IMG/VR virus record: IMGVR_UViG_3300008253_000110
Coordinates: 158 to 64,157 of that record
Direction: 5' to 3' (one strand)
Length of the DNA stretch: 64,000 nucleotides
DNA from: a virus
The notes beneath the pieces were generated by a model. That model made no database searches. It worked only from the letters and a program-made list of their open reading frames with translations, and was not told where the DNA came from. Positions 26,307 through 44,675 of the stretch are shown one piece after another. A program made the translations under genes and the position numbers. Numbering within the stretch: position 1 is the first letter of the stretch; every line of letters begins with the position of its first letter.

Positions 26307-26314
26307 TATTTATA
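26307..26314 (-). promoter_or_regulatory. T4-type late promoter (TATAAATA) upstream of the PAAR/fibre block
   Basis: Exact intergenic match; its last base is the A of the ATG of the opposite-strand gene at 26314. Confidence 0.6.
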
Positions 26315-26841
26315 TGAATAAAGATGCTATAATGATACACGAATTGAGAAAGCCTCTTATAATAGATCCAAATCTATTTTTAACGTTTGATGATGGCCTA
26401 TACACACAATATAAATATGCAAGACATCTTGAGAACCAAAAGATATTCTTTATATCGTCTGGAATTATTTGTCCAGAGAAGTCAATACAATCCTCTAGAT
26501 TTATAACATGTGGAAATGCTCATTTAAAAGCATTTAAGGGTAATATGGAAAATTATATGACTCTTGATCAAATGCTTGAGTTGCCTCTTGGGGCTCATTC
26601 ACATTATCATCAAAATCTTAATAAGTTTGAGAGATTAGTAGATAAGATATCTTGGATAAAACAAGATACAGAAGAAATGTTAGAATTCTGGTTAAAATAT
26701 TTTAACTCAGTACCTACATCATTCTGTTTTCCTTATAATGATGATCTTGATGGTCTATATAAGGCAATACTTTCAAAATCATACGGCTTTACTGACTTTT
26801 ATGGTTCAGGACGTATTAACATAGACGATATACTTGTTTAA
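26314..26841 (+). CDS. Polysaccharide deacetylase (NodB/CE4-like) family protein
   Basis: Motifs LTFDDG, GAHSHYH and SFCFPY. It is the only convincing plus-strand gene in the window. Confidence 0.8.
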   Translation: MNKDAIMIHELRKPLIIDPNLFLTFDDGLYTQYKYARHLENQKIFFISSGIICPEKSIQSSRFITCGNAHLKAFKGNMENYMTLDQMLELPLGAHSHYHQNLNKFERLVDKISWIKQDTEEMLEFWLKYFNSVPTSFCFPYNDDLDGLYKAILSKSYGFTDFYGSGRINIDDILV

Positions 26842-27460
26842 ACGCCTCTGCCCTATGTACTCCTACTTGCTTTCCACGGTACATAGCTAAGGCCTCCATA
26901 GATTCTATAGATCTACAATCAGGGTAATTATAAAGTTCAGTTGAATATAATGACATTACACGTTGTTTAAGTACTATCTTATCTGTTACATCAACATAAT
27001 AATTTGGTACAAATACAGGTTCAATTTGCCCAAAACTCCAATCTGTAGAAGATGGTATTTCTGACATATATAGAGCACGTACTGTACTCTGAGTCTTAGG
27101 TCTGCATGCTACCATACAGGCTTCTGCTACCATTCTATGATCCCTATGTATATCTGATATATTATGTGTATATACTTCTTCAGGTTTGTATGTTTCAATA
27201 ACATTTTCAATTGTTTCAAGAGTTTCAGAATAATCCATATTACAATCTGACTGATCGAATATAATAGGTTGGGCATTTAGGAGACGGCATGATTCTTTAA
27301 ATGCTAATATTCGATCGGAAGATACATGGGTTGCATGCGGTTTATCACCTTTACATAGTGAAATAACTACAACATTTTTATTATTATCAGATAATTTTGA
27401 TATTGTACCTGATGGTCCATACGATTCATCATCTGGGTGAGCAAATATAAAAAGTATCAC
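26816..27460 (-). CDS. PIG-L/LmbE family de-N-acetylase
   Basis: Motifs FAHPDDESYG and DIHRDHR, with C-terminal AEAF. Confidence 0.92.
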   Translation of the reverse strand: MILFIFAHPDDESYGPSGTISKLSDNNKNVVVISLCKGDKPHATHVSSDRILAFKESCRLLNAQPIIFDQSDCNMDYSETLETIENVIETYKPEEVYTHNISDIHRDHRMVAEACMVACRPKTQSTVRALYMSEIPSSTDWSFGQIEPVFVPNYYVDVTDKIVLKQRVMSLYSTELYNYPDCRSIESMEALAMYRGKQVGVHRAEAFKQVYRLC

Positions 27461-28350
27461 ATCATTTCCCTTATTATATCACCTAAATCATATCTAGGTT
27501 TGTAATCATACTTATTAATTGCCATAGACATATCGGGTATTCTATACATAATCTCACCAGATCTTGGATTTTTATAGGAAATTATAGATTTTGAGTGAAG
27601 AAGTTTAATAACTAGCATAGCTAGTGTTGTCATAGTAATAGGGTCCTCAGAATTACCTATATTAATTAATTTATCTTCAGGTGTTATCTTTTGTAGAAGA
27701 CTTACAGCATCTGAGACATGACAAAATGATCTTATTTGCTCTCCTGTACCATATATAGCTAAAGGTTTATTCTTTTTTGCCTTTTCAATAAATCTTGGTA
27801 GAACCATACCATACTTAGATGACTGGCCAGATCCTACTACATTAAATAGACGTGCTATAGAATATGGAAAAGAAGAGGATGTTATCATAAACTCTGTTAA
27901 TAACTTAGAGGCTGCATACCCACCTCTTGTATTAAGTGATGAGGGTATAGATGCCGGATCGTCTTCCGAAAATGCATACTCAGCAGAACCATATATTTCT
28001 GAAGATGATGTGAATATCACATGTCTTTGAGCTTTTTCGAATAGGGGAATAAGTTTCCTACAGATATCAACATTATTCAAAAGAGTTTGATAGGGATTAG
28101 AGTCTATATTAGATACACCAACAGATCCTGCAAGAAAATAAATCTTATCTGCATTCCCAATATATGGGTATAGTATCGAATCATCCATCTTTGTTATATC
28201 ATCATAGACTATATTAATGTTCTTAAGACCAGAGGAATTTGATGTTGAGTAGTTATCTATTACAGTTACATCATCTCCGGATTTTTTATATGATCTAACT
28301 AAATGTGTCCCTATAAATCCTGTCCCGCCTAATATTAATATCTTACTCAT
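27457..28350 (-). CDS. NAD-dependent nucleotide-sugar epimerase/dehydratase/decarboxylase (extended SDR)
   Basis: Motifs GGTGFIG, FTSSSEIYG, YAASK, RLFNVVG and GTGEQIRSFCHV. Confidence 0.93.
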   Translation of the reverse strand: MSKILILGGTGFIGTHLVRSYKKSGDDVTVIDNYSTSNSSGLKNINIVYDDITKMDDSILYPYIGNADKIYFLAGSVGVSNIDSNPYQTLLNNVDICRKLIPLFEKAQRHVIFTSSSEIYGSAEYAFSEDDPASIPSSLNTRGGYAASKLLTEFMITSSSFPYSIARLFNVVGSGQSSKYGMVLPRFIEKAKKNKPLAIYGTGEQIRSFCHVSDAVSLLQKITPEDKLINIGNSEDPITMTTLAMLVIKLLHSKSIISYKNPRSGEIMYRIPDMSMAINKYDYKPRYDLGDIIREMM

Positions 28351-28937
28351 TCATTACTCCATATAGGGTAATCTTTCCATGACCCTTGTTTAAATTCTTC
28401 ATTATAATTATTCAGTAGTAATACACCTTTAGCAGCTTGCTCTGGTGTCATATTCATATGATAACCATTAATAATACCAAGATCATCTTTAACTGGTATA
28501 GAGGCATCTCTACCATCCCAAGACATTCTTTTTAGTATATCATAGTCTTCTTTATTGTCAAGTAAAATTGCACCACCTTTACCAATAGGAATAGCTTTCT
28601 TTTGATGAAAGGATAAACACATCCAAAGACCTTTCTTATACATATCTCTATGAAATCCGACAGCTGAATCCCATATATGAGTACCTTTAAGGTTATATGA
28701 TCCTACCCATTCCTCTTTATTACCGGTATACTTATAACCTGCATTATTAATTGCTTGTGGTATTGAGATATATGTATGTATAGGTATTGATAGTACAGTA
28801 GGACTATTCAGGTACTTTAAACTCAGAAATATAGCATTAGAACAAGAATCAGTTAATACAACATAAGGAGCTCCTGTGTATTCTGATAATCTAGACTCAA
28901 ATAATGTTATAAAATCATGATTGTTATGGAAATTCAT
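28347..28937 (-). CDS. Short DegT/DnrJ/EryC1/StrS-family PLP aminotransferase (196 aa)
   Basis: Motifs FESRLSEYTG..Y.V.TDSCSNA, WDSA, SFHQKK.IPIGKGGAI and GYHMNM. It is about half the usual family length. Confidence 0.85.
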   Translation of the reverse strand: MNFHNNHDFITLFESRLSEYTGAPYVVLTDSCSNAIFLSLKYLNSPTVLSIPIHTYISIPQAINNAGYKYTGNKEEWVGSYNLKGTHIWDSAVGFHRDMYKKGLWMCLSFHQKKAIPIGKGGAILLDNKEDYDILKRMSWDGRDASIPVKDDLGIINGYHMNMTPEQAAKGVLLLNNYNEEFKQGSWKDYPIWSNE

Positions 28938-28940
28938 AGT

Positions 28941-29801
28941 TTATATTTTTGCTCGTTTAAAATATTCAATCTTCTCTCTTGTCCTTGTTTTGACATATTC
29001 TTCAGCTGCAATTAAATGTTCATGCCAGAAATAAATTCCTTCGATTTCAGAATCTTCAAATTCATCAATAGGTGTATAGAACTCACCAATTTGATATCGT
29101 TGAATAGGTTTAATAACAGGATGCATATTAGTATTAAAATGAAGGTCAATTGCATATTCTTCTAAATCATGTAGATGCCTATCTGACATATACTCATCCC
29201 ATATATCATCACCGCCGTTCTCGGTAAGATCTTTAAGTGACTCATAGAATGCTTTATAAAACCCTGAATCTCTATGTGATATGACAAATCCTGTATCAAA
29301 AGGATTAACCCATTCCTCCGGAGCATTCCTCTGTGAACCTGCTGAATAATCATCATACTGACCACATATAACAAAATCATTAGAGCCTACTGAATCAACT
29401 AGATCTCTTGGAAGAGGTTTAATTAGATTCATATCAAGATCAATATGAATGAATATATCTTCTTCTAATGTTTCTTCTAATATGTATCCTGCTAAAGGTA
29501 CGTTCCAATATCCACAAAAATAATCATCTGTTTCTTTAATATAGTTCTCTATATAGGTAACATTAAGATCCTTTAACTTATCCTGTGTTTCTTTAGATAT
29601 AGTATTCTTCGAAGGACAGTAGGCATATATAGGTATATCTTTCAGCCAACCACCATTCTTTCTCCAGTTCTTAAAACATATAATTGATTCAGACTCGTAC
29701 CTTCGAGGTTCTGGGTATTGTCCTTCATTATTTATATTGTTTATATTATGATCATCATTCTCAATCATTGTTATTAATGCGTACTTCATATTATACCTCA
29801 C
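28941..29801 (-). CDS. Putative GT-A glycosyltransferase-like protein (286 aa)
   Basis: FIHIDLDMNLIK contains a DxD motif, followed by PFDTGFVI (GT8-like pattern) and a late His; it sits among nucleotide-sugar genes. Confidence 0.55.
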   Translation of the reverse strand: MRYNMKYALITMIENDDHNINNINNEGQYPEPRRYESESIICFKNWRKNGGWLKDIPIYAYCPSKNTISKETQDKLKDLNVTYIENYIKETDDYFCGYWNVPLAGYILEETLEEDIFIHIDLDMNLIKPLPRDLVDSVGSNDFVICGQYDDYSAGSQRNAPEEWVNPFDTGFVISHRDSGFYKAFYESLKDLTENGGDDIWDEYMSDRHLHDLEEYAIDLHFNTNMHPVIKPIQRYQIGEFYTPIDEFEDSEIEGIYFWHEHLIAAEEYVKTRTREKIEYFKRAKI

Positions 29802-29803: not shown

Positions 29804-30289
29804 CTAAATTTTCACGAATTGATATAGACTTATCTCTGGTAATGTTGATATTATAACTTGTCTATTATCTTCTGTTAAACTATCAAAAAATAATATAGTT
29901 TTATCTTTATCCGATATTATAAACTTATCCCAAAAATTCCATACACGAACATCCACACTATTATATATTACACCATCAGCATCCTCAATTCCGTCATATA
30001 TTATAAATTCTTTATTACAAATATTAGTAACTTCAACATATTTCAATTTCCGGTTACTGTCTATTATAAAATCAGTTAATTTAAATTCTGTAGTTAATAA
30101 CTCATATGACTTTAATAATATAATAAAATCTAAATACTGTTGTTTAACATCACCATAAAAATCTGTAATTTTAAGTCCTCTATAAACTTGAGAGCTTACC
30201 CTATCAAAATATATTCCATTTTCTTTAATAAGTTTCTGTACAGATTTATAAGAACTTACATCAGTAAATTCTAATAAATTATTATTCAT
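29804..30289 (-). CDS. Hypothetical protein (161 aa)
   Basis: Tightly packed in the operon; no motif recognised. Confidence 0.6.
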   Translation of the reverse strand: MNNNLLEFTDVSSYKSVQKLIKENGIYFDRVSSQVYRGLKITDFYGDVKQQYLDFIILLKSYELLTTEFKLTDFIIDSNRKLKYVEVTNICNKEFIIYDGIEDADGVIYNSVDVRVWNFWDKFIISDKDKTILFFDSLTEDNRQVIISTLPEISLYQFVKI

Positions 30290-30294: not shown

Positions 30295-31158
30295 TTATCC
30301 TTTAAACTCATTAAAGGATTCACCACCTATTAAAGTACCTTTAACATTACATACATTACATATCTCTATATCATTTCTACGGTAATTTAAAAATAACTCT
30401 CTCTGCTTTGTCTTTTTTCTCCACATATCAAGAAGGCCTGTATCATTAATATTACCTATTATTAAATTCTTTTTCCAATCATGTGGACAGTATTGATAAT
30501 CTCCATCAGGTGATACGAATAACATAAAAAATGGATAATAACAAGTCTTATTATCAGAATTATTATGTATTGATGGTACAGAACCTGCTCTATTATTAAG
30601 AGAAAAATTAGTAATGATATTTTCTATTGGATCAGACTCTAAAAATATTTCCTTTAATTCTATTCGCTTACCTGCGAACTTATTAGATATATCATTATAA
30701 TATTCTATATCATTGCGATTATATACTGATATTAATATCTCTACTTGTGAGTGCATTAAATTATACATCTTATCGATAAACTTAGAAGAGCCGAACTTTT
30801 TCTTATAACCATTAGTAACTAATCGAACAGTTAAGAGATCGTTTATTTGAGTTAGTTTCTCAAATATCTCTAGGAAATCCGGATGTAATGTAGGTTCTCC
30901 TAAACCAGCTAGATCTATTTGACCTGAAAAACCTACATCTCTTAGCTCTTCAACAATTTTATTTACTATATCCATAGACATAAATTGTACTTCTTGCTTA
31001 TTAAATGATCTATAATCTATTACAGAGTGAGGACATGACACACATTGTTTGTCACAGGTCCGGGATAGTGATAGTTCTATCTCTCCAAATATATCTATGC
31101 ATGACTCATTATCTACATTTCTCTTTTTATGGGATGTATCTATATTAAAAGTTTTCAT
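30295..31158 (-). CDS. Radical SAM protein with SPASM/Twitch domain (287 aa)
   Basis: CDKQCVSC, GLGEPTLH, and C-terminal CYYPF..CPHD..C..C. Confidence 0.93.
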   Translation of the reverse strand: MKTFNIDTSHKKRNVDNESCIDIFGEIELSLSRTCDKQCVSCPHSVIDYRSFNKQEVQFMSMDIVNKIVEELRDVGFSGQIDLAGLGEPTLHPDFLEIFEKLTQINDLLTVRLVTNGYKKKFGSSKFIDKMYNLMHSQVEILISVYNRNDIEYYNDISNKFAGKRIELKEIFLESDPIENIITNFSLNNRAGSVPSIHNNSDNKTCYYPFFMLFVSPDGDYQYCPHDWKKNLIIGNINDTGLLDMWRKKTKQRELFLNYRRNDIEICNVCNVKGTLIGGESFNEFKG

Positions 31159-31997
31159 TCCAATCGACCATCAATAACTGAATATCTATAGGCTTTATAC
31201 TCAGAATAATATCTTGTCTCCTCCAAGATATCTTCTTTAAGTAATACAATAGGGGCTTTAGTTGCAAAAGAAATATTATCTCCTTCTTTTTCTATAAACT
31301 TTAAAGTAGCCTTGTTAATAATCTCTTTATGTCTCTGTATAATATCAGGTGTAAATATCTCTTGAAATATTTTTAGGGATATTGATGTTATATTCCACGG
31401 CTGTCTTGATGTTAACTCTAGAGATGATATACCTATACCCACTCTTAAACCAGTCAATCCAGTCATCTTAGAGAATGATATAAGAGTCATGACATTTGAA
31501 TATAAAGATAACTTTTCTACATATTCTATATGAGTAGATAGACTATCTTTAACATAGATATCATATGATAGGTCAATAATAAAAAATTTATCAAGATTTT
31601 CTGATATATACGTTATTATATCTGAGTCAGAAACAGATAGACCATTTGAAGGATTTGGAGTTGATATGTATATAACAGAGGCCTCAGAGAAACCAGTATG
31701 CCTTATATTATAAAGCTCAGTATAATAATCAAGCATACCATAATTAGGTGATTTATAATATATACTCTGACCTTTAAATTCATATAGAGTGTCTTTTATA
31801 ACACCATCAGTACCATACCTAACAGAGATCATATCATTATTAACCCTATACATATTAGCTATAGTAGAGAATGTATCTCTATCATGTGGATAATTGTATA
31901 AGTCAGATATACTAATATTATCAATAACAACCTGTGATTTATCTAAGATGTACTTAGATATCGGAGTATTATTGTTTGTGTGGTAAACTGAAGTCAT
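31155..31997 (-). CDS. PLP-dependent class I/II aminotransferase or decarboxylase (HisC/CobD-like)
   Basis: Motifs YISTPNPSNG, IIDLSYD and SFSK.TGLTGLRVG. Confidence 0.85.
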   Translation of the reverse strand: MTSVYHTNNNTPISKYILDKSQVVIDNISISDLYNYPHDRDTFSTIANMYRVNNDMISVRYGTDGVIKDTLYEFKGQSIYYKSPNYGMLDYYTELYNIRHTGFSEASVIYISTPNPSNGLSVSDSDIITYISENLDKFFIIDLSYDIYVKDSLSTHIEYVEKLSLYSNVMTLISFSKMTGLTGLRVGIGISSLELTSRQPWNITSISLKIFQEIFTPDIIQRHKEIINKATLKFIEKEGDNISFATKAPIVLLKEDILEETRYYSEYKAYRYSVIDGRLE

Positions 31998-32391
31998 TGG
32001 TGTTTAGTATTATCCATTTTAAGTCAATGTAGTACACTATATTGTTACGGACTACAAAGTTTCTAATATCACTATCTATTAACCTAAAGTAGCTAGTGAA
32101 CATACCGTGATCTTTTATGTAGTTTGATATTAGTATACTATTTACTCTAGGACGTGGATCTTCTTCTATATATTCAAAATAGTAATAATCATCATCTTTA
32201 TATAAATAGTTAGGTACATTAGGATCCTTATTCATACTATATAAAAAGTCTGCAGTAAATCTCATGTTACTATTATCATCAACTTTTATCAATTTCATAC
32301 CATTGAATTTATAAGATAAGAAATACTTAGACTCTAAATCATCTCCCGCAGGATCTCCTTTCTCATATACATTATTTAATAATATCACCAA
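31969..32391 (-). CDS. Small protein-kinase/phosphotransferase-fold protein (140 aa, tentative)
   Basis: YYYFEYIE resembles a hinge segment; DSDIRNFV and YYIDL resemble the catalytic loop and Mg-binding motifs. Confidence 0.45.
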   Translation of the reverse strand: MVILLNNVYEKGDPAGDDLESKYFLSYKFNGMKLIKVDDNSNMRFTADFLYSMNKDPNVPNYLYKDDDYYYFEYIEEDPRPRVNSILISNYIKDHGMFTSYFRLIDSDIRNFVVRNNIVYYIDLKWIILNTNDFSLPHKQ

Positions 32392-33241
32392 AGTCCTTAT
32401 AAAAGTTTCTAACTACAGTTTTATATGTTTCATTTAAATTACCAAGATTAGAATAGAAATCACAAGAAATACATAAGTCTTGTCTTAAATCATCTCCTAT
32501 ATTATTATATATATCCCCTATATCATCATCATATATATTACCTATTTTAGTCTCTGACTTACCATCTATCCATGTACATACTAAGATATCACCATTAGGA
32601 GCAGTACCATTATCCATAATAGCATACTGACAAGGTTTGTCTATATCAGTCCAGCCTGTAGAAGCATGTGAGTGTGAGTGATTAACCCAATCATCATATG
32701 TTCTCATTGACTCTAGTATAACTCTAAAAAAAGTATCAGGTTTCTTTGAAGATCGTAATAATACCGCTAAATTAGGGATATATTTTTTGAATTTAATTAC
32801 ATTACTTTTAAGAATGTCATATTGTTTCTCTTTACCTAATGTAATACGTTTAAATTCCTTTAGTTCAGACCCATATAGAGAAATATATACACATAGCTTC
32901 TTTCTTTGTGCCAATGACTGCATAAATGAATCAGATAGCACTGATGAGGATACTGCTGATGTGTAGAAGTAATAATTATCTATACTATCTTTAGAGTCAA
33001 GATAATCGAAGAGCTCTAACAAATCATTATGGTTATAGGATAATATATCACCTACAGTAGGTGTCATTTCAATTATCCTTGTACCATTTTTTTCTACTTC
33101 ATCAATAATATATTTGAATTTATCTATTTCAAGTGGTGTATATTTCTGATAGATACCCCCTTCTATTCCTTTTAGACAGAAGTTACATTTAAGAAAGCAT
33201 GTCGATGTTAATGATACATTAAATATATGTGGAAAGTTCAT
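32372..33241 (-). CDS. Radical SAM protein with SPASM/Twitch domain (289 aa)
   Basis: CFLKCNFC and C-terminal CQY..CTW..IGNI..C..C. Confidence 0.92.
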   Translation of the reverse strand: MNFPHIFNVSLTSTCFLKCNFCLKGIEGGIYQKYTPLEIDKFKYIIDEVEKNGTRIIEMTPTVGDILSYNHNDLLELFDYLDSKDSIDNYYFYTSAVSSSVLSDSFMQSLAQRKKLCVYISLYGSELKEFKRITLGKEKQYDILKSNVIKFKKYIPNLAVLLRSSKKPDTFFRVILESMRTYDDWVNHSHSHASTGWTDIDKPCQYAIMDNGTAPNGDILVCTWIDGKSETKIGNIYDDDIGDIYNNIGDDLRQDLCISCDFYSNLGNLNETYKTVVRNFYKDFGDIIK

Positions 33242-34031
33242 TATAAGGGATAATCCGTGTGTCTGGAAACTTTTTTAGCATTACTGTACATATCTTAGCA
33301 TAACACTCTTCTAAGTTATATTTTTTAGAAGCCTGCTTCAACTGAGACTTTTCATACTCTGTAATCCATTTATTAGCAGCTGTATTAAATTGGTTGTAAG
33401 TTGTAGTAAAAATAGTATTATCTTCTTCTTCTATATATTGGTAAAATGACTCTAGAATACAATTACGTTTATTAGGATTAATTAGATCAGTATGTTCTAT
33501 ATTAAGAAAGTTTAATCTTGCATACTCAAACTTATCATTATCATCAACTAGTTCTTTAACATATGCATCTAACACCTCTGAAAAGGTACCTTCACCCCTT
33601 TCTATGTAGTTATAAAAAGTAGTAAAGAATGCAATAGTAATATTTCTGGAGATATTAATTTGCTTCAATACATAATCTTGATAAAGGACATTAATATCTT
33701 TAGATAGTGTTTCCTTAGGGTGGTGAATACCTGTGGATTTAGATAGTATACAGTTTTCTTTAGCTTTTATAAGAAATGCATAGTTAATATAGTTTTCATA
33801 TAAGGTACAACTCTCTTTAAACACTAATTGGTTTTTATATAGTTTAAAAGCGTCCCTAATAGATATATTAAAATCTTTATAAAGGTTTATTATAGAGGAT
33901 TTGGGAGAACCTAAGGAATCCTCTACTGAACATCTTATATTTGGAGCTTCTTCTAATAAGCGAATTAATGTATTTTTACCACAATTATCTATACCATATA
34001 CAGTTATTATCTTTTTCTTTCTATTAGTCAT
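33219..34031 (-). CDS. Hypothetical P-loop-like protein (270 aa)
   Basis: N-terminal ITVYGIDNCGKNTL resembles the Walker A loop of NMP-kinase/sulfotransferase-type folds. Confidence 0.45.
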   Translation of the reverse strand: MTNRKKKIITVYGIDNCGKNTLIRLLEEAPNIRCSVEDSLGSPKSSIINLYKDFNISIRDAFKLYKNQLVFKESCTLYENYINYAFLIKAKENCILSKSTGIHHPKETLSKDINVLYQDYVLKQINISRNITIAFFTTFYNYIERGEGTFSEVLDAYVKELVDDNDKFEYARLNFLNIEHTDLINPNKRNCILESFYQYIEEEDNTIFTTTYNQFNTAANKWITEYEKSQLKQASKKYNLEECYAKICTVMLKKFPDTRIIPYNELSTYI

Positions 34032-34860
34032 TATACTTAGGATACTCTAGCATTAACGTACATTCACAAAACTTTAATTTGCAAGTTGATATTAATAAAT
34101 CCTCCTTTGATATTTTTAATTTATATGTTTCTTTAGTACAATTATTTTTAAACTTCCCATTATAGTCTATATCAATAAACATTGGCCTACATTGTTTATT
34201 CTCAAATCTATTAGACCCTGTAGCAAATGATATGAAATGAGATGGATTAACAGCATCCGCAAGTTCCTTTTCAAATACTTTTATAATATCATCAGAGTAA
34301 TTAGATTTAAACCCAATTGATTCTATAGGTGTTAAATAGTTTAATTCATACGGTATACTAAGCTTAAGTAATTCTGCTATTCGTTCTTTTGTTTTACGAT
34401 GATAGATAGGGTCTGGATGGATATTTACTATAACAAGAGTCTTTGATGATATATCCTTTAATCTTTTGAAAAAACTATCTAAGTCATATTCAGGATGATA
34501 AGAAGCTTTAATAGTTATATTATTAAGTGAATGTACTAACTCAACTCTCTTAGATAGATTGGTTATAATAAAGGTATTCTCAGAAGTTCTTGATTCTATC
34601 TTTTGAACCTCTGATATAATAAAATCAATATGTTTTGATAATAAAGGTTCACCACCAAGTATCTCTAGATTATACTCAAAATCAATGAGTTTTAGTCTAG
34701 CTATTACCAGTCGAATGATACGTCTTTCTTGTTTTGTATTAATTTTCTCTGATATATTTAATTCAGAAGCACAACAATATGTACAATGATAGTTACATCT
34801 ATTGTTTATCATCCATGAGAATGTAGGTATCGCTTTTTCAGAACCAGCTATTAGTGTCAT
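34024..34860 (-). CDS. Radical SAM protein (278 aa)
   Basis: CNYHCTYC, LGGEPLL, and a C-terminal Cys cluster (CRP..C..C..C.C). Confidence 0.93.
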   Translation of the reverse strand: MTLIAGSEKAIPTFSWMINNRCNYHCTYCCASELNISEKINTKQERRIIRLVIARLKLIDFEYNLEILGGEPLLSKHIDFIISEVQKIESRTSENTFIITNLSKRVELVHSLNNITIKASYHPEYDLDSFFKRLKDISSKTLVIVNIHPDPIYHRKTKERIAELLKLSIPYELNYLTPIESIGFKSNYSDDIIKVFEKELADAVNPSHFISFATGSNRFENKQCRPMFIDIDYNGKFKNNCTKETYKLKISKEDLLISTCKLKFCECTLMLEYPKYND

Positions 34861-37698: not shown

Positions 37699-38731
37699 AA
37701 TATCCTTTACGATAATGTATAGGATTATATATCAATTCACCTTTTATTGCTAAGGGTAGAGTAGAGTTATTTTCAGTCTCAATACCATCACATATAAAAA
37801 AATACTTACATCCCATACATGATTTAGGTTTCATATATGTTTGATTTCTATTTTCTTTAGCTACTTTGAGCAGATGTTTTAATGAATCTTTTTTATATAC
37901 CTGAGGATCAACAGAATAGTCATATACCCCGATATTCCAATCATAGACATCCCATATATGTTGATATGTAGAGCATACATATTTCTCATACCCTTCCATG
38001 TAACAGTATGGAGTATATCTAACATTAATTATTTTAACTGCTGATTTAAGTATGTCAATAGACTTTTTTATTTCAGTGCATACTACATTATAATCTAATG
38101 GTATCTGTGTCTTAGCGTCATCCCAATGATTTAGGGGTAAGTAGTTAACCTCAAATACATCGGCATCGAGACTTTGAATTAGTGTAGAGAATTCTGATAA
38201 AGCAGTAAAGTTTTCCATAGTAACAGTAGTATTGATACGAACTTTAATACCTACTTCTCTACATAGATTGATAGCTTTAATAATACGATTAAATGCTCCT
38301 GATCGTCTTACTATTTTATCATGTATACTGGCATTAGAACCGTGAACAGAAAATAATATTTCTGTTAGACCTGCATTATAAGCTTTACGCATGAAGTCAA
38401 TCTTAGAAAATTTATGTCCGTTAGATAATGTAGATATACTAGAAAAGCCTTTATCTTTGGCATATTGTACTAACTCAAAAAAGTCTTTATGTATAGAAGA
38501 TTCCCCTCCAGAAAAGTCTATTTCTTCCATACCTGTATCCCAGAGATAATCAATACGTTTCTTTATAACATCAGTATCAGTACGAATATGAAGTTGTTCT
38601 CCGTAATAGCAGAACTCACAGTCATAATTACAATGAGTACCTGTGTCTAACTTAGCTCTTGAACATAGTTTGTCTTTATTTTCAGACTGAATCTTATGAT
38701 GTGATACAATGTTATAGTTTATTGGGCTCAT
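37685..38731 (-). CDS. Radical SAM protein with C-terminal CxxC-x4-C cluster (348 aa)
   Basis: CNYDCEFC, FSGGES and CMGCKYFFICDG. Confidence 0.93.
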   Translation of the reverse strand: MSPINYNIVSHHKIQSENKDKLCSRAKLDTGTHCNYDCEFCYYGEQLHIRTDTDVIKKRIDYLWDTGMEEIDFSGGESSIHKDFFELVQYAKDKGFSSISTLSNGHKFSKIDFMRKAYNAGLTEILFSVHGSNASIHDKIVRRSGAFNRIIKAINLCREVGIKVRINTTVTMENFTALSEFSTLIQSLDADVFEVNYLPLNHWDDAKTQIPLDYNVVCTEIKKSIDILKSAVKIINVRYTPYCYMEGYEKYVCSTYQHIWDVYDWNIGVYDYSVDPQVYKKDSLKHLLKVAKENRNQTYMKPKSCMGCKYFFICDGIETENNSTLPLAIKGELIYNPIHYRKGYYESI

Positions 38732-39668
38732 TATATATAATATTCTTAATAATATTAATTATGTCATCATTTTCCTCTAGGTTTAATGAATCAAAGTCCT
38801 CTTCAATATCTTGCATTCTATATTTAAGTCCTAAGTCTGTCTCAAGATACTCATCGTTTATTTTAGAATCGTATACGACTTGTTTATTATAATGTCTACA
38901 CTCAGCTATAAACCTAGGAGAACAATCATGCTTTCTTTCTATAGGTGTATAATAATACATAATAAATCTATTAAATAGATCCTTTGTAGGTACTTCATAA
39001 TATTTAATCCACTCAGAGTCTTCACCTTTATTTTCTGAGTTAGTAAGCACCATTATATGATATCCTTTATACTTATTAGATATTTTTTTAATTTGAGCTT
39101 CTGGAATATTACGACAATTCTTAGTAGAATATAGCATAATAGTTCTTAACCAGCCAGGGAATAATGCAGGTCGTTTAAGTCGTTTTAATCTAGAAAATAG
39201 TATTTTCTTTTTGTAATTAATACCATTAAGAGTTACTGGGTCATAAACTCTATCATCTTGAAGTATCCACACATTTTCTTTTGTATTATCTTTTATTTCT
39301 TTATCACCACAAGCCATATGAAAGATATTATCAAATATTAATGTTTTATCTTTTGTTGATAATACACCACCATCAGTAAAAATAATATTAGATCCTGATA
39401 CTAGTCTAGGTCTCTTTTTAAAAAGAGTATTTTGCTTTATATCTTCAAGTTCATTAGTATTAAAATCGTATTTCTCTTGAATAGCCTGAACAAACATATT
39501 CATATCTATATCTTCAGCTAATAATATACCAACTTTAAAATGGTTTTTTAATATATGGTAGTAATCAATGACTTCAAAAGTATGACCACATATGCCGTGG
39601 TTGTTATTACTCCATGAATAAGTCAACCATAATTCATATTCTTTAGGTAATTGTAGTATTTTACTCAT
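38712..39668 (-). CDS. Hypothetical, possibly glycosyltransferase-like protein (318 aa), paralogue of the next gene
   Basis: Shares DLF...Y.Y.....D..PR.I.E..YY.K with the 256-aa protein. Confidence 0.45.
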   Translation of the reverse strand: MSKILQLPKEYELWLTYSWSNNNHGICGHTFEVIDYYHILKNHFKVGILLAEDIDMNMFVQAIQEKYDFNTNELEDIKQNTLFKKRPRLVSGSNIIFTDGGVLSTKDKTLIFDNIFHMACGDKEIKDNTKENVWILQDDRVYDPVTLNGINYKKKILFSRLKRLKRPALFPGWLRTIMLYSTKNCRNIPEAQIKKISNKYKGYHIMVLTNSENKGEDSEWIKYYEVPTKDLFNRFIMYYYTPIERKHDCSPRFIAECRHYNKQVVYDSKINDEYLETDLGLKYRMQDIEEDFDSLNLEENDDIINIIKNIIYNEPNKL

Positions 39669-40435
39669 CCTAGCATTCCCTGTATCATCATATCGTTAGA
39701 GGATAATGTATAATTAGAAAGACCATTACTCTTAATATCATTATATCTAAGAGTAACAGAGTCTATTATATTCTCTAATTCCTCAATGATTTTAATTTTC
39801 TTAGAGTAATAAAAGGCTTCCGGAATTATTCTATTATTAGTATCACGTGAGCTATGTACATATACTATTGAAGATATTAATTCAAATAAATCTCCACGAC
39901 CTATATAATGTTCTTTCATTATAACATTATCTCTATTCCGATATTTCGAGAGTCCTAAGAATGGATACACTCCTGATACAAAGGTTTTATCTCCAGACTT
40001 TATAATATCTTTAAATATAGAAAAGTTTAATTTAAGGTAATTGAATACATCATAGTCCTGATAATCATATGATCCATAGTATGTTACACTTCTGTCATTC
40101 TTATATCTAAACATAGGATGAGGTACATCGGAGAATACATGAACATCTCCTGACAGGAATTCCTTTACATTATAGAACGATTTAATATCAACTAATAGAG
40201 TTTTCTGGAGATCAAGACTATATAAATTAGTTACATTAATTGATTTAATATTCTTTGGAGAAATAGAGTATTTTGATCTTAAGATATTGTTAACTAAATT
40301 TAAATCTTCTTTTGTGATTCCTGCTATGTATAGCTCAGTTTTGAGGTATACTGCATACTCAAATGCATAGAATAGAGATCCATTTATCTTATTATGTATT
40401 TGCCATTTATATACTACACCAATTCGCCTGCTCAT
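39665..40435 (-). CDS. Hypothetical, possibly glycosyltransferase-like protein (256 aa)
   Basis: DLFELISSIVYVHSSRDTNNRIIPEAFYYSKKI aligns with the 318-aa paralogue. Confidence 0.45.
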   Translation of the reverse strand: MSRRIGVVYKWQIHNKINGSLFYAFEYAVYLKTELYIAGITKEDLNLVNNILRSKYSISPKNIKSINVTNLYSLDLQKTLLVDIKSFYNVKEFLSGDVHVFSDVPHPMFRYKNDRSVTYYGSYDYQDYDVFNYLKLNFSIFKDIIKSGDKTFVSGVYPFLGLSKYRNRDNVIMKEHYIGRGDLFELISSIVYVHSSRDTNNRIIPEAFYYSKKIKIIEELENIIDSVTLRYNDIKSNGLSNYTLSSNDMMIQGMLG

Positions 40436-40437: not shown

Positions 40438-41070
40438 TTAAACATTTAACATCATATGACTTTTTATAAATTTGTCAGCTTTCTCCGTAACCTTATCTTT
40501 ATCTGTAAGAGTCATTATCTCTTTAAAAATATTAGAAAATTTAGAATTTAGATGGGATACTCTAGCAATCTCATCTTTATAATTTAAATATTCTTCTAAC
40601 TTGTTAATAAGCTCTTCATCACCAGTCTCTAATATACTTAGGTATACTTCCTCTCTATTACCATCATATATAAAGTATCCTTTAGAATTTAGTTCATTAT
40701 TAAGGATAATCCATGAGTAGAGTGCTACACCTGAAATGGATGCAAGTTCGGGTGTTATTAAAGCTCTAATTCTCCTAATCTCTACCGATTTAACATTCCC
40801 AATATCCTCAGGGTCTATATCCTCTACAATAACTTCTGACGGTAAAACTTCAAGAGTTTGAAGAGTTTTAGGAATTATTATATTTTTACATCCGTCGTTT
40901 AAACTTGTTTTAATCCTTTCAGCTGCCATTACAGAAAGCTTAAGATATTGTTCATTTGTATTAACAATATTATCTAATGTATTAGAAGTAATACCCGTAA
41001 CTTGCCAATGTGTTCCACTATCTCTAACTAATGCTAATTCATATATCATTTGTTTTTTTCTCCAATTCAA
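40438..41070 (-). CDS. Hypothetical protein next to the Cys-rich gene (210 aa)
   Basis: In operon orientation; helical C-terminus; no motif recognised. Confidence 0.65.
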   Translation of the reverse strand: MNWRKKQMIYELALVRDSGTHWQVTGITSNTLDNIVNTNEQYLKLSVMAAERIKTSLNDGCKNIIIPKTLQTLEVLPSEVIVEDIDPEDIGNVKSVEIRRIRALITPELASISGVALYSWIILNNELNSKGYFIYDGNREEVYLSILETGDEELINKLEEYLNYKDEIARVSHLNSKFSNIFKEIMTLTDKDKVTEKADKFIKSHMMLNV

Positions 41071-41102: not shown

Positions 41103-41606
41103 TTATGCAGTGTAATTACACTCGCAATTATTATTACAAGTACAGACAGAATTACAAGAACAATCGGAATTACAAATGCAATCCTTCCTAACAATTTCAT
41201 ATTTTTCATAGATCGACCTAGCGTAAATGTCAGGACCCGCCCAATCAGTAGCATCAATCAGCTCCCCATCTCTATCAGCCATAAATCCTTGCCCACCGGT
41301 AACTTTGTCTACCATAAAGTATAATTCCTCTACATGATTATCCGTAATAATAGTAGATGTTGTATAAGGAGTTGGTTGGGTGACGGTAAAATCATGATAC
41401 CTATGTTCATTCCATCTAGTTAATTCTGCTCTAATCTTTTGTCTTACCTCTTCTAATATGTCAACGTTTATAGGAGCTCCTTCAGCAACATTAGCCGTAG
41501 TAGTTAAGGGTCTATTTGTTAAACACCCACCCCTTGATCCTAGACCGTCACGACCAGTACTGTAACCCTCCCAATTAGCCACACAATTGTGCTCTAGACA
41601 CGACAT
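41103..41606 (-). CDS. Cys-rich protein with a C-terminal (CxCNxx)4 repeat; candidate radical-SAM substrate (167 aa)
   Basis: Ends in DCICNSDCSCNSVCTCNNNCECNYTA and lies immediately downstream of a SPASM radical SAM gene (2-nt gap). Confidence 0.75.
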   Translation of the reverse strand: MSCLEHNCVANWEGYSTGRDGLGSRGGCLTNRPLTTTANVAEGAPINVDILEEVRQKIRAELTRWNEHRYHDFTVTQPTPYTTSTIITDNHVEELYFMVDKVTGGQGFMADRDGELIDATDWAGPDIYARSIYEKYEIVRKDCICNSDCSCNSVCTCNNNCECNYTA

Positions 41607-41608: not shown

Positions 41609-42748
41609 TTATCTCCCCTGATTCTTTATACTGGATACAACCGCTCTATCGATTTCTCCAAATGTTTTAAAATACCCACACTGATTATTTATATATCTGT
41701 CCGTCCATTGCTCCATGAAATTAGACTTCACTGAATTGTCTAGTGAGGATACAGGGCAAATCATACAAGTTGTTGCAACACAATCTGTACATGTTGTTGG
41801 TACAGTTTTAATATAATTTGCATATTTTTGAGTTTCAATACCTAAATTCTCGACCCATTCTTTATCCATTATAGATCCAGAGCCCATTGATTCTTTATTA
41901 GGGGAATATAACGAGCCATGACAAGCATAAGATTTTCCAGTTACATCTATAGCGACCATATTAGCACCAGAGGCGCAATGTACTTTTTGTTCATTACCAT
42001 CAAACCAAGAACATAAAAAATGATCATGTTTCTTATAAAACTCTATTTCCTTTTTTGCTACTCTAAGCATAGCTGACCGAAATGTAGCTACAGATTCTTC
42101 AAGTTCAACATCAGGTAACTCATTCACATAATCTATTGTAGGTGCGTATGTTACCGCCGCATGCCCATCTAATCTATCATACAAAGCTTTATAGGAATCC
42201 CATGTCTCTTCAATATCTTTCATAGATTCTAAAGGTACAGTAGCTTTCATAGATACATTTATATTTTTTGTAATTAAGTATTCTAGATTAGCTAATACTC
42301 TTTCTGTTGTATCTGTATTCACACCCTGAACTCTATACTTTTTATTAATAACTTCACCGTCCCAAGATACCTGGATTCTAAATTTATCTAGAGCAGACTG
42401 TGGTACGGAGTCTAAAACATAATCCAGTCGTTTTCTATCTAGAGCATTAGTATACATGTGAAAAGATACTAAATCATTATCCCCAAATGTATTCATTATA
42501 TCAACAATTAATTTACCATTTAATGTAGGCTCACCTCCCCAAAATGATATATTAAAAGCACCAAAACGTTGTATAAACCATTCTGACTCAAGAATTTGAT
42601 TAATTTTAGCTTTTAAAACCTCTATTTTTACATTACTCAGAGTCTGTTTGTTTGTTTTCAGTCCTTCAAAACAATATGTACAAGACATATTGCAAAGAGC
42701 TGTAGTTGTAATCTCAAACGAAAACTGATTTCTTTTATTATTAAGCAT
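41609..42748 (-). CDS. Radical SAM/SPASM peptide or protein maturase-like enzyme (379 aa)
   Basis: CNMSCTYC, FWGGEPTL and SWDG, plus a full SPASM array CASG..CHG..CTDC....CMIC..C. Confidence 0.92.
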   Translation of the reverse strand: MLNNKRNQFSFEITTTALCNMSCTYCFEGLKTNKQTLSNVKIEVLKAKINQILESEWFIQRFGAFNISFWGGEPTLNGKLIVDIMNTFGDNDLVSFHMYTNALDRKRLDYVLDSVPQSALDKFRIQVSWDGEVINKKYRVQGVNTDTTERVLANLEYLITKNINVSMKATVPLESMKDIEETWDSYKALYDRLDGHAAVTYAPTIDYVNELPDVELEESVATFRSAMLRVAKKEIEFYKKHDHFLCSWFDGNEQKVHCASGANMVAIDVTGKSYACHGSLYSPNKESMGSGSIMDKEWVENLGIETQKYANYIKTVPTTCTDCVATTCMICPVSSLDNSVKSNFMEQWTDRYINNQCGYFKTFGEIDRAVVSSIKNQGR

Positions 42749-42962
42749 TAAGTATATCCTCTAATATGGAATCTAACTTCTCATCTGTTATTTTTTCTTT
42801 TTGTGGTTCAATTACTCCGATAAGGGCATTTGCTAATTGGGATACTTTTAAAGCTTCTTCCTGGAATTGAGGTATATCAGATAAATGCTTTGCAGCTTCA
42901 ATAAGATTAAAGGAGGCATTGGCCAAATGTTTATTTACATCATTTATACTATCACGAATCAT
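42741..42962 (-). CDS. Small helical hypothetical protein between two radical SAM genes (73 aa)
   Basis: Overlaps both neighbours and is helical/acidic. Confidence 0.6.
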   Translation of the reverse strand: MIRDSINDVNKHLANASFNLIEAAKHLSDIPQFQEEALKVSQLANALIGVIEPQKEKITDEKLDSILEDILNA

Positions 42963-43941
42963 GGAATTCTCTCCTTATTATATCTCTAGGTATCAAAGGT
43001 AATATTTCTTTTGTTTTATCATAACAATATTTATATATATCACAAAGTTCGGGTATTGGTCCATTCGACTTAATTTGCTCATACATGCAACCTTTATGAC
43101 AATAATCCTTTACACGACAAGTTGAGCATTCAGGCATAGAGTAAAACTGATCTATCTTCTCAGCTGCTTCTTTATCCCCAGTAAATCTGTCACATGTAAC
43201 GGACTCTCCAGTCTCTGTTAATGCATAAAGATTTCTTCCTACACCACACCCTTCAGCTGTAAATCCTTTATAATGATATCTTAATATATCACGAAGCCAG
43301 GATAGTATAAAATTAGGCATATCCTCCGTAATATTATTTTTGTACCACTCATACATTTCATCAATACCGATCTGGAGAAGTTTAACTGATTCCGGAGTCC
43401 ATGTCCCTCTATCTCTAACTAATGTTAATCCAGGATTCATTCCAAAATTTCGAGTTATATATAAATGATTTTCTAGTAAATTATAGTCAGATCCGGATAT
43501 CATAGAATGACATTTTAATCCAGAAAACAATTCTCGTTTAGCGTATAATACATCTAAAGAAGATAGATTGGAATCTCTAATAGGTCTTCTATCGTTTTGC
43601 CATAAGCCATCGAATGATATTGATATCTTAACATTTTCTTTTAAAAGATAATCTAGTATTCCAGGTGTTAGGGATATCCCATTAGTAGGCATAGCTAAGG
43701 CATAATTATCATCAACTTTCTTCATTGTTGATATAACTGACTTAACCATCTTCATCTGGAGAAGAGGCTCACCCCCGAAAAAGTCTATTTGTATAAGATC
43801 ATTAGGGTGCTCAAGTCTAAGTTCTTTAAATTTATTTATTATAGAATCATGAGATAAAGTATTCTTAGACCACTTATCCATTCCACAATATGAGCAGTTT
43901 AAATTACACCCTTCTGATAATAGAACATTTAATGTCTTAAT
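42952..43941 (-). CDS. Radical SAM/SPASM protein; the ORF track starts at 43881, but the reading frame extends upstream, probably from ATT at 43941
   Basis: In-frame upstream codons read IKTLNVLLSEGCNLNCSYCGMDK and contain the CxxxCxxC motif; then FFGGEPLL, SFDG, CGVG..CD..CSTC....CHKGC..C. In-frame stop at 43948-43950. Confidence 0.85.
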   Translation of the reverse strand: MKTLNVLLSEGCNLNCSYCGMDKWSKNTLSHDSIINKFKELRLEHPNDLIQIDFFGGEPLLQMKMVKSVISTMKKVDDNYALAMPTNGISLTPGILDYLLKENVKISISFDGLWQNDRRPIRDSNLSSLDVLYAKRELFSGLKCHSMISGSDYNLLENHLYITRNFGMNPGLTLVRDRGTWTPESVKLLQIGIDEMYEWYKNNITEDMPNFILSWLRDILRYHYKGFTAEGCGVGRNLYALTETGESVTCDRFTGDKEAAEKIDQFYSMPECSTCRVKDYCHKGCMYEQIKSNGPIPELCDIYKYCYDKTKEILPLIPRDIIRREFHDS

Positions 43942-44675
43942 AACGAATTAACCTCTAATATACTTTTTACTAAATCCATAGAGTATACAGAGGCAAAAGA
44001 CTCAGCATCTTTAGGAAGACACGGCCCACCAAATCCATACTTACCATCTGGACCAGGAACATCAAAAAGACCTGTACCCATCCGTGGTACTCGCTCTAGT
44101 ACAGATACTATTTCTTTGTAATCTATACCCTCTATCCCACATACTTTATATATCTCGTTTAAATATGTTATTTTTAGGGCGTTGAAGGTGTTCATAGTAT
44201 ACTTTAATATACAAGCTGTTTTTATATCTGTTAGATGTACATTCTTTGTGGAAACCTCAGAATATTTCTTAAATATAGCTAAAGTATGCTGTGATGTAAC
44301 AATAGAATTTGATCCTATTATTAATACATGAGGGTTAATGAAATCATGGTGGGCCGTTGCTCTAGACAAGAATTCCGGTACACATACTATATTATTAGAG
44401 TACCCTTTAATTAGGTCTGGAAGCACAGTAGATTTTATTATTATAAGACCAGAGTACTCAAGTTCTTTTAGATTCTCAAGTGCATTTAATAGTATTGTTG
44501 CTTCTATTTTACCGTTTACTGTAGGTGTTGGGAGGCATACAAATATACATTCTGTATCCATCATATCTTCGATAGATACATCATTATATAAAGGGTCCGA
44601 TATTATTTTATCTGTTTTGGTAAACCCTTTATCAACTGCTTTCCCAACAAAACCATAACCAAGAATACCAATCAT
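43929..44675 (-). CDS. UDP-glucose/GDP-mannose 6-dehydrogenase family protein (248 aa, lacking the C-terminal domain)
   Basis: Motifs GYGFVG, FVCLPTP, IIKSTV, PEFL, K...NTF.A.KI...NE and GFGGPCLPKD. Confidence 0.9.
   Translation of the reverse strand: MIGILGYGFVGKAVDKGFTKTDKIISDPLYNDVSIEDMMDTECIFVCLPTPTVNGKIEATILLNALENLKELEYSGLIIIKSTVLPDLIKGYSNNIVCVPEFLSRATAHHDFINPHVLIIGSNSIVTSQHTLAIFKKYSEVSTKNVHLTDIKTACILKYTMNTFNALKITYLNEIYKVCGIEGIDYKEIVSVLERVPRMGTGLFDVPGPDGKYGFGGPCLPKDAESFASVYSMDLVKSILEVNSLLRH

Follow-up and report, generated by a model that had tools for sequence, protein, structure and literature searches.

Why would a marine T4-like phage carry eight radical S-adenosylmethionine (SAM) genes among the genes for its tail? 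This question is raised by the IMG/VR virus record IMGVR_UViG_3300008253_000110, of which we analysed 64 kb (hereafter the window) of a 65-kb viral contig with a CheckV completeness of 38%. Between a tail-fibre gene and a PAAR gene the window holds an 18-kb block of 24 genes at 26314-44675 (hereafter the island), for which a preliminary description had suggested the virion or a late-made small molecule, and not DNA, as the substrate. Our analysis points to a conserved enzymatic maturation module for a phage fibre-tip protein, a reading that we favour with modest confidence and for which the chemistry is a proposal. The virion is the best-supported substrate for the core of the block, because this core is built around a Cys-repeat protein with a Peptidase_S74 context, with PapB/QhpD-like maturases beside it, a fibre domain upstream and a probable relative in purified virions. 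Glycosylation, and the virion as substrate of the variable half of the block, are more tentative proposals.

The core comprises nine genes at 37685-44675, given here in the order in which they follow each other along the minus strand (aa, amino acids; AF2, AlphaFold2; NDP, nucleoside diphosphate):

43929..44675, minus strand: truncated NDP-sugar dehydrogenase-like protein of 248 aa, first core gene (Pfam PF00984/PF03721 above cut-off)
42952..43947 (first ATG at 43881), minus strand: rSAM8, radical SAM/SPASM protein (PF04055, NCBIfam PapB)
42741..42962, minus strand: u73, a 73-aa acidic protein without Cys between rSAM8 and rSAM7, candidate helper (homologue in the equal slot of relatives)
41609..42748, minus strand: rSAM7, radical SAM/SPASM protein of 379 aa, directly upstream of the Cys-repeat gene (Pfam PF04055)
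41103..41606, minus strand: Cys-repeat protein of 167 aa, proposed substrate and fibre-tip component (profile search, motif logo, AF2 model)
40438..41070, minus strand: u210, conserved, directly downstream of the Cys-repeat gene (phrog_25260)
39665..40435, minus strand: u256, conserved (neighbours in the Atlas viral or from Campylobacterota, none of them in a named family)
38712..39668, minus strand: u318, conserved alpha/beta protein (phrog_24441)
37685..38731, minus strand: rSAM6, last core gene and best-conserved radical SAM protein (PF04055, 1e-20)

Seventeen IMG/VR loci were fetched via the Cys-repeat motif and compared, including 10-kb flanks, with every island protein. This neighbourhood search, which the preliminary description had asked for, recovered the core in the window's order in all 17 loci, in metagenome contigs and in the bacterium Halobacteriovorax. 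In all 17, the Cys-repeat gene is immediately preceded by rSAM7 and immediately followed by u210, and rSAM8 is likewise always present; u318 and rSAM6 occur in 15, u256 in 14 and u73 and the short dehydrogenase in 10 of the loci, all in the same order as in the window, and each locus has 4-10 open reading frames (ORFs) with a CX3CX2C motif. The u73 homologue sits in the equal slot in its 10 loci, in the related locus L011 and in Halobacteriovorax, and the dehydrogenase was found at the equivalent position also in two further contigs. The core order recurs in L011, L013, L015, L017, two short contigs and Halobacteriovorax. Since the amidinotransferase and the sugar genes are rarely found within the 10-kb flanks, we divide the block into the fixed nine-gene core and a variable extension (26314-37684), which contributes five radical SAM genes, an amidinotransferase, two pyridoxal phosphate (PLP) enzymes, a short-chain dehydrogenase/reductase (SDR), two deacetylases and a GT-A-like transferase.

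L011 matches the island gene by gene in the same order, with identities of 28-66%. L015, a 181-kb phage contig, has about ten radical SAM genes; inside its variable part, the region L015:13588-14304 holds a gene with a Pfam Tad6 match and an AstE/AspA-like deacylase gene. L013 (ENA k141_86166, a 192-kb contig, also represented by L014) is a large phage contig with the module that is translated correctly only with TAG read as Gln, and several TAG codons stand in frame in its Cys-repeat gene. A Megablast search of 50,697 phage records with the island returned nothing, and so did a single-protein pattern scan of IMG/VR with the amidinotransferase. The metagenomes with near-identical sequence all come from marine sediment, seawater or vents, and no RNA sequencing run contains it.

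The gene that precedes the core belongs to this conserved arrangement as well:

44675..47803, minus strand: 1042-aa tail fibre (PHROG tail-fibre and minor-tail matches)

Its C-terminal ~130 aa form a domain (ADLAENY...) in which, in relatives, the gene immediately preceding the module also ends: in at least 10 of the 17 IMG/VR loci that neighbour shares 36-51% identity with residues ~908-1041; the domain also matches L017 and the tail fibre gp103 of the Campylobacter phage CP220. A DUF4815 giant protein is encoded further upstream of the core in five of the 17 loci. Because of these two recurrences, the fibre-then-module arrangement is, judged by gene order, ancestral for the group. The idea that the island had been inserted into the tail operon was not supported: the block is conserved synteny across a broad T4-like phage group and one bacterium. 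Its GC content is 0.30, compared with 0.34-0.37 outside, and we rejected low GC as proof of insertion; since 13 of 14 related loci show an equal dip, the low GC belongs to the module itself and does not mark a recent insertion.

The Cys-repeat protein is composed of a helical core and the C-terminus DCICNSDCSCNSVCTCNNNCECNY-TA, its final 24 residues being the family signature. A word-based search with this protein found 3 proteins only and a profile search was needed: a profile from five relatives, run against 1.84 billion proteins, gave 217 cluster representatives (50% identity clusters), 99 of them at E <= 1e-10. The logo of the strict motif, drawn from 124 representatives, reads [DN]C[ILV]CNSDCxCNxVCxC[HN]x[DN]CGCNY. 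Eight Cys per chain are conserved in CxC spacing, the Tyr is conserved to 99% and the Asn/Asp positions to 77-94%, and in many members two Asn positions are taken by His. One way to parse the motif is as three N-x-x-C units (N5..C8, N11..C14, N/H17..C20), between which C-x-x-D is interleaved. In NxxC motifs, beta-thioethers between Cys and Asn are made by a streptococcal radical SAM enzyme. The CxC repeat is absent from the other structural proteins of the window.

What follows the motif in the family gives the connection to fibres. Of the 124 strict-motif proteins, 45 stop no more than three residues after the Tyr, whereas a short tail is present in 44 (starting with SDxxLK in 38) and a long one in 35 (starting with SDxxLK in 32), which places SDxxLK right after the motif in 70 representatives, more than half. 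SDxxLK is the start of the Peptidase_S74 intramolecular chaperone, which folds trimeric fibres and spikes and then cleaves itself. Because the motif directly precedes this self-cleavage site in the relatives, the Cys-repeat would be the mature C-terminal tip. Pfam detects Peptidase_S74 in the members P0186 and P0248, and precomputed matches exist for several others; in ten representatives the motif is terminal and preceded by more than 300 residues, and relatives of 600-830 aa also end in it. The PHROG tail-fibre matches of P0186 were considered as proof that the Cys-repeat core sits in long tail fibres and were dismissed, tblastn showing that the S74 part alone matches.

The AF2 model of the window's Cys-repeat protein (59 sequences) reached a pTM (predicted TM-score) of 0.72 with a confident helical core. 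Foldseek of this model against the PDB gave no match, and one of its neighbours in the Atlas by fold is a viral cluster carrying PF27846 (TM 0.42). NCBIfam contains no CXXX-repeat match for the protein, and the CXXX-repeat maturase model TIGR04115 is touched only by rSAM3, at E 0.002.

The radical SAM proteins that accompany this candidate substrate number eight, just as the preliminary description had counted. PF04055 matches eight frames, seven above the Pfam gathering cut-off of 29.5 bits and the eighth at 21.5 bits, and a script found exactly eight ORFs with an N-terminal CX3CX2C in the whole window, every one inside the island. C-terminal Cys clusters, which had likewise been reported, are present in all eight: the auxiliary-cluster pattern of SPASM/twitch proteins is canonical in rSAM8 (CX2CX5CX3C), takes the form CX2CX4CX2C in rSAM7 and is recognised as PF13186 SPASM in rSAM1 (42.8 bits, cut-off 21.5), and the remaining five have partial clusters. 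The eight genes were rejected as recent paralogues, their pairwise identity being 27% or less.

rSAM8 and rSAM7 resemble the maturases of the PapB/PapA, CteB/SCIFF and QhpD/QhpC systems. The best NCBIfam match of rSAM8, taken with a 22-residue N-terminal extension, is the PapB ranthipeptide maturase at 1e-28, aligned end to end; rSAM7 matches the same model over its full length at 1e-22, and the next matches of both are QhpD, the SCIFF maturase and anSME (anaerobic sulfatase maturase). PapB, QhpD and the SCIFF enzyme make thioethers from Cys to Asp, Glu or Thr, and these enzymes and anSME act on peptides or proteins. Against the PapB equivalog NF047865 (>=340 bits) the full-length alignments score 80.5 bits for rSAM7 and 100.5 bits for rSAM8, so that the two resemble PapB without being members and would at best be members of a new family. 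The extension of rSAM8 stems from its unusual start: the CNLNCSYC (CX3CX2C) motif lies upstream of the first ATG/GTG/TTG at 43881, the open frame reaches back to 43947, and an ATT at 43941 behind AGAGG is the sole candidate and the probable start codon. This anomaly could reflect a rare start codon or an assembly indel. Close by, an out-of-frame ATG at 43928 opens just 9 codons.

For the other core proteins the annotation is less specific. rSAM6 has weak NCBIfam matches to HxsC, AhbD, NirJ and BlsE; u73 matches no PHROG or NCBIfam family, and neither the u210 profile nor the u318 profile has a relative in the PDB. The AF2 model of u318 (pLDDT, the per-residue confidence score, 88.8; pTM 0.88) shows alternating beta-alpha elements, and its language-model neighbours, which include Glycos_transf_1 and DUF2827 clusters, point tentatively to a glycosyltransferase of the GT-B type. 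u256 is weakly similar to u318 (E 0.01) and is possibly a distant paralogue. The first core gene had been called a UDP-sugar dehydrogenase (UDP, uridine diphosphate). Its Rossmann motif, central domain and catalytic GGPCLPKD are kept, and NCBIfam TIGR03026 matches at 6e-35 over profile positions 70-294 of 413, but the C-terminal UDP-binding domain is absent, as in the other phage versions. The island protein therefore has two of the three domains that define the UDP-glucose/GDP-mannose dehydrogenases, whereas the Halobacteriovorax copy has all three.

That the target is an extracellular fibre is further suggested by this bacterial copy. We scanned 185,579 species genomes with a five-row Cys-repeat alignment, and the only matches were two Halobacteriovorax assemblies. 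Their gene order is rSAM8, u73, rSAM7, the Cys-repeat protein (...CGCHY), u210, u256, u318 and rSAM6, followed by four radical SAM genes, the amidinotransferase and u286 (the GT-A-like transferase candidate of the extension), and then by the SDR, a deacetylase, a radical SAM gene, the PIG-L protein and the full-length dehydrogenase. The module is chromosomal and lies between housekeeping genes (L037, L039; G001:C1, ~1713500-1732000). Adjoining it is a gene whose 526-aa product has the N-terminal methylation motif of type IV pilins as well as a Peptidase_S74 domain and may be a matured pilus-tip adhesin. Because the module adjoins this pilin-like S74 protein, the target would be an extracellular fibre and not DNA. 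In the window, the ~85 C-terminal residues (2606-2690) of a 2691-aa giant fibre (17183-25258) share 35% identity with the C-terminal end (~100 residues) of the same Halobacteriovorax protein.

The nearest cultured relatives are the Campylobacter group II phages (Firehammervirus: CP220, CPt10, IBB_35), which have homologues of at least 13 island genes at 26-45% identity. In CP220 these are gp163 for rSAM6 (45%), gp086 for the amidinotransferase (40%) and gp136 for rSAM7 (27%, 9e-40), together with homologues of u286 (38%), u318, u210, the SDR, PIG-L and the polysaccharide deacetylase. Among the 50,697 phage records, Firehammervirus entries are the only ones with rSAM7- and u210-type genes, and the rSAM7 search of this collection at E <= 1e-10 hit Campylobacter phages only. 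The layout differs: CP220 has its homologues scattered over at least five places, whereas the window and its metagenomic relatives have one collinear block behind a fibre. One CP220 cluster, located upstream of a tail fibre and some 2 kb from the PAAR gene, unites five radical SAM genes with the amidinotransferase and two GT-A-like genes; a short dehydrogenase, a small gene, a radical SAM gene and the u210 homologue (gp015) are next to the baseplate hub, and the trio of SDR, PIG-L and deacetylase is found elsewhere. The earlier remark that some Campylobacter phages carry many radical SAM genes of unexplained function agrees with the literature. Timms et al. described in 2010 11-12 radical SAM genes and an amidinotransferase-containing 'interchangeable' cluster, left the function open and proposed a metabolic benefit at low oxygen (PMC2853527), and Carvalho et al. 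listed the radical SAM and carbohydrate genes in 2012 among the unusual features of IBB_35 (PMC3322345). Published Firehammervirus work has not connected the radical SAM enzymes with a Cys-repeat virion protein.

Such a protein may exist in these phages. CP220 gp140 (534 aa; L019:633-2237; NC_027997 160932-162536) has (CTCDCNY)n repeats, and its N-terminal part matches the profile of the Cys-repeat family (E 9e-5). The rSAM7 homologue gp136 is encoded 2 kb away, and a 'tail fibre attachment' gene of the Rnl1/gp63 type separates the two genes. Its orthologue in IBB_35, gene 3-9 (94% identity), is a 1605-bp gene whose product of 60,318 Da is among 38 proteins found by mass spectrometry (MS) in purified virions, with 2.6% coverage (PMC3322345 Table S2). 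gp140 is thus a probable Cys-repeat relative, and the virion MS evidence applies to that relative alone. Because a 21-bp tandem DNA repeat encodes the CTCDCNY heptads, the Cys-repeat of gp140 can expand by repeat slippage. In the phages CP21 and WX1 the gp140 orthologues are annotated as 'putative N-acetylneuraminate pyruvate lyase', a name for which we find no support.

The variable extension provides the remaining 15 genes of the island:

36691..37698, minus strand: rSAM5, 335 aa (PF04055 3e-11; CX3CX2C and C-terminal Cys cluster)
35675..36742, minus strand: amidinotransferase with pentein fold and catalytic ...GGIHCST... (PDB matches HsvA 1.4e-20, StrB1 2e-19, AGAT 5e-18, SxtG)
34857..35684, minus strand: rSAM4, 275 aa (PF04055 3e-10; Cys pattern)
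34024..34860, minus strand: rSAM3, 278 aa (PF04055 1e-7, Fer4_12; Cys pattern)
33219..34031, minus strand: Walker-A (GIDNCGKNT) protein of 270 aa, kinase-like by motif (weak phrog_761 match, residues 1-28)
32372..33241, minus strand: rSAM2, 289 aa (PF04055 under cut-off, weak SPASM match; CX3CX2C at residue 15)
31969..32391, minus strand: u140, no named family (no match in Pfam, NCBIfam or PHROG)
31155..31997, minus strand: short class I/II aminotransferase-like PLP enzyme of 280 aa (Pfam PF00155; NCBIfam HisC 2e-18; homologue in L011)
30295..31158, minus strand: rSAM1, 287 aa, radical SAM and SPASM domains (PF13186 6e-11, PF04055)
29804..30289, minus strand: u161, no named family (no match in Pfam, NCBIfam or PHROG)
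28941..29801, minus strand: u286, GT-A-like transferase candidate with DLD motif (phrog_23758 3e-51)
28347..28937, minus strand: short DegT/DnrJ/EryC1-type PLP enzyme of 196 aa (Pfam PF01041 3e-14)
27457..28350, minus strand: NAD-dependent sugar epimerase/dehydratase of the SDR type (Pfam PF01370 5e-39)
26816..27460, minus strand: PIG-L/LmbE-type deacetylase with AHPDDE motif (Pfam PF02585 4e-21)
26314..26841, plus strand: polysaccharide-deacetylase-like protein (phrog_26430 2e-27; 36% identity to CP220 gp156)

The amidinotransferase of the preliminary description is solid: in the PDB matches the catalytic Cys is aligned, FAGGIHCSTIEI pairs with the catalytic FGGSFHCATLDV, and the protein belongs to the pentein superfamily. 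Only the comparison with the Pfam arginine deiminase (ADI) model stays below cut-off. It has 213 homologues at ~40% identity, many of them in large phage contigs with the module. The Cys-repeat gene, the SDR and the two deacetylases were likewise confirmed by family scans and sequence. Both PLP enzymes keep their lysine motifs (SFHQKK in the DegT-like and SFSK in the HisC-like protein) but are short, and the short DegT form (200-205 aa) is also found in L011 and L015. Of the three proposed glycosyltransferase (GT)-like proteins u286 has support as a candidate, being 38% identical to CP220 gp088, which is annotated as nucleotide-diphospho-sugar transferase superfamily (gp088/089 as SSF53448), and u318 and u256 stay tentative. 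u286 homologues with 45-66% identity occur in L011, L015, L020 and Halobacteriovorax. The plural 'kinase-like proteins' reduces to the one Walker-A protein with its weak N-terminal PHROG match, which has two paralogues in L011; single-sequence searches of the PDB with this protein and with u286 found no solved relative.

How might such a module work? We propose that rSAM8 and rSAM7, perhaps aided by u73, abstract hydrogen from the Asn/Asp side chains of the Cys-repeat motif, which would then be joined to neighbouring cysteines as thioether bridges. The product would be a covalently stapled knot, resistant to proteases and redox changes, at the tip of a trimeric fibre-like virion protein, and this maturation would precede the joining of the Cys-repeat protein to the virus particle. 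More weakly, we infer that the Cys-repeat protein is also the substrate of the dehydrogenase, u210, u256, u318, rSAM6 and the variable half, and that together these may build an unusual amino or guanidino sugar, or something similar, which would be attached to the Cys-repeat protein or to the adjacent fibre.

A number of observations weigh against this picture. The CxC repeats could bind metal ions instead. The window's own Cys-repeat protein (...CNYTA) has no S74 domain, its Cys tail is modelled with low confidence by AF2, and the tail-fibre matches of P0186 are explained by its S74 part. The link to gp140 is weak (hhalign probability 40%), and the virion MS evidence concerns a probable relative and not the window's protein. 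The NCBIfam scores of rSAM7 and rSAM8 are far under the equivalog cut-offs; no RRE/PqqD-like domain (RRE, the recognition element of ribosomally synthesised and post-translationally modified peptides, RiPPs) and no leader was found, and both proteins begin straight with the radical SAM domain. The proposed target is also unlike that of a RiPP system, being 167 aa with a confidently modelled helical core and not a short precursor with a leader. As for the extension, the amidinotransferase lies within 10 kb in three of the 17 loci and the sugar genes in one to three, so that the variable half may serve another purpose, and in CP220 the rSAM6 homologue stands by thymidine kinase and the SDR and deacetylases by ThyX, among nucleotide-metabolism genes.

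Three other explanations have to be considered with these points in mind. The Cys-repeat tip could be a metal-binding element with metallothionein-like CxC clusters and no crosslinks, the radical SAM enzymes then acting on sugars or cofactors or building or inserting the metal cluster. The tip of T4 gp37, with its His-x-His iron sites, is an analogue. The eight Cys in CxC spacing and the His found for Asn at two positions fit such a role, a trimer would gather 24 thiols, and a tail that AF2 leaves unstructured is what a metal- or partner-dependent fold would give. We nevertheless hold this explanation to be improbable, because it leaves the two PapB/QhpD-like maturases beside the gene in 17 of 17 loci unexplained, and because the most conserved positions other than Cys are Asn/Asp, the acceptor residues of known thioether maturases. 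Somewhat less improbable, yet still unlikely, is that the block, or only its variable half, serves to make a product that is diffusible or directed at the host, such as an aminoglycoside-like or guanidino-sugar metabolite or a remodelled host glycan, with a role in superinfection exclusion, competition or host takeover. The DegT- and HisC-type PLP enzymes, SDR, PIG-L and HsvA/StrB1-like amidinotransferase do resemble aminocyclitol and amino-sugar pathways, the extension is loosely linked to the core, a mini-set in the cyanophage S-SCSM2R was read by its authors as antibiotic-synthesis genes (PMC12801897), and the metabolic benefit put forward by Timms et al. (PMC2853527) points the same way. 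Yet the extension is physically joined to the Cys-repeat core in the window, in L011, L013, L015, L020, L033 and L036 and in Halobacteriovorax, phage dehydrogenases without a nucleotide-binding domain would be odd in a free nucleotide-sugar pathway, and family scans saw no exporter or membrane glycan-assembly gene in the island.

Pathways of thymidine hypermodification use kinases, PLP enzymes and radical SAM isomerases, and by this model the block would hypermodify the phage DNA after replication. The P-loop protein, the PLP enzymes and the radical SAM enzymes do occur together here, and some CP220 homologues are the ones mentioned among nucleotide-metabolism genes. We nonetheless think this very improbable: family scans revealed no DNA-binding, glycosylase, transglycosylase or DNA-transferase domain in any island gene, the module exists in a bacterial chromosome beside a pilin-like fibre protein, and it is organised around a protein with a fibre-chaperone motif. 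The modification of CP220 DNA with 2'-deoxy-7-amido-7-deazaguanosine (dADG) is reported to arise by a separate 7-deazaguanine pathway (bioRxiv 10.1101/2023.04.13.536721). Maturation of a fibre-tip protein hence stays the reading that we prefer for the core.

The position of the island among the structural genes deserves a closer description. Almost all genes of the window are on the minus strand. Along this strand they begin with a T4-like baseplate set (gp53-, gp5-, gp25-, gp6-like and others; PHROG), continue with a 1959-aa DUF4815 protein, the 1042-aa fibre and the 18-kb block, and end with the PAAR gene, giant fibre-like proteins and four protease-like paralogues. The downstream boundary of the island is:

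25985..26290, minus strand: PAAR spike-tip protein (Pfam PF05488)

The ORF listing confirmed the 24 genes between the fibre (44675-47803) and the PAAR gene (25985-26290), of which 23 share the minus strand with the baseplate and fibre genes, the sole plus-strand gene being 26314-26841, as well as the 1-nt overlap at 44675 between the stop of the fibre gene and the next start. Of the 'many' 4-nt overlaps that had been noticed we found five, next to many longer ones; the widest gaps between island genes are 32 and 47 nt. By Pfam, NCBIfam and PHROG scans, 15 products belong to named families and nine do not. The four tandem paralogues (5188-12212, 510-712 aa), downstream of the giant fibre genes, match phrog_9158 and the 'protease' phrog_3677, and in the 200 nt that separate the fibre gene from the giant DUF4815 gene (47804-48003) there is an open frame of ~64 codons (MIPVEGHKG...LEK), which is under the threshold of the ORF listing.

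TATAAATA, the T4-type late-promoter core, is present on the minus strand in four intergenic gaps of the structural genes (5145, 26307, 55488 and 59395), with the copy at 26307-26314 lying 17 nt upstream of the PAAR gene. These placements suggest T4-like late transcription signals in this phage. Because no island gap contains the motif and its total in the window is below chance (13 observed, 20.7 expected), it gives nothing firm on the timing of the island. Sigma-70-like sites and terminators are at chance level. Behind the fibre gene the island genes follow each other without gaps, and their transcription probably continues from the structural promoters.

Set beside known systems, the module shares with those of ranthipeptides, sactipeptides and QhpC a Cys-rich target, conserved Asn/Asp at i+/-3 and a maturase gene adjoining the target gene. 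It differs in that the target is a folded structural-type protein of 167 aa (up to 830 aa) without a recognisable leader or RRE, that two maturases are accompanied by up to eight further radical SAM enzymes and sugar enzymes, and that the setting is a virion fibre module and not a bacteriocin locus. The CXXX-repeat system of NCBIfam (TIGR04114/TIGR04115, PF27846) has a Cys at every fourth residue, whereas the repeat described here has a period of six (CxCNxx). Virion glycosylation systems, such as those for mycobacteriophage capsids and tails and for giant-virus fibrils, also place virus-encoded sugar-nucleotide enzymes and transferases beside structural genes, but they are not known to have radical SAM enzymes or a Cys-repeat target, and for the island glycosylation is a prediction. 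Searches of the literature for phage radical SAM fibre crosslinking and for CXXX-repeat systems yielded no description of this module. To our knowledge, radical SAM/SPASM crosslinking has been described for small secreted peptides and for one enzyme subunit (QhpC), and not for virus particles.

In summary, the Cys-repeat proteins constitute a large unannotated family of 217 clusters (50% identity), whose sharp signature is overlooked by present annotation pipelines. In its widest form, our proposal is that in a wide group of T4-like phages and in at least one predatory bacterium, there on a pilin-like fibre, a dedicated radical SAM pathway of several enzymes covalently staples the final 24 residues of a fibre tip or adhesin, which it probably also glycosylates or guanidinylates, and this would explain the 11-12 radical SAM genes of the Campylobacter phages; we regard this as a serious possibility, although the odds are somewhat against it as a whole. 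If it is true, phage fibres carry enzyme-made covalent staples and unusual sugar or amidino groups, with a bearing on receptor recognition, on stability in sediment, vents and gut, and on the engineering of fibres and their expression in other hosts. The Halobacteriovorax copy beside a pilin-like S74 protein suggests that equal chemistry serves bacterial predation. The proposal offers a testable answer to a question open since 2010, namely why Firehammervirus phages, which are candidates for biocontrol in food safety, encode a dozen radical SAM enzymes. It would mean that chemistry known from antibiotic peptides is applied to a structural protein of the virion, and that these host-recognition organelles form a new, enzymatically matured class.

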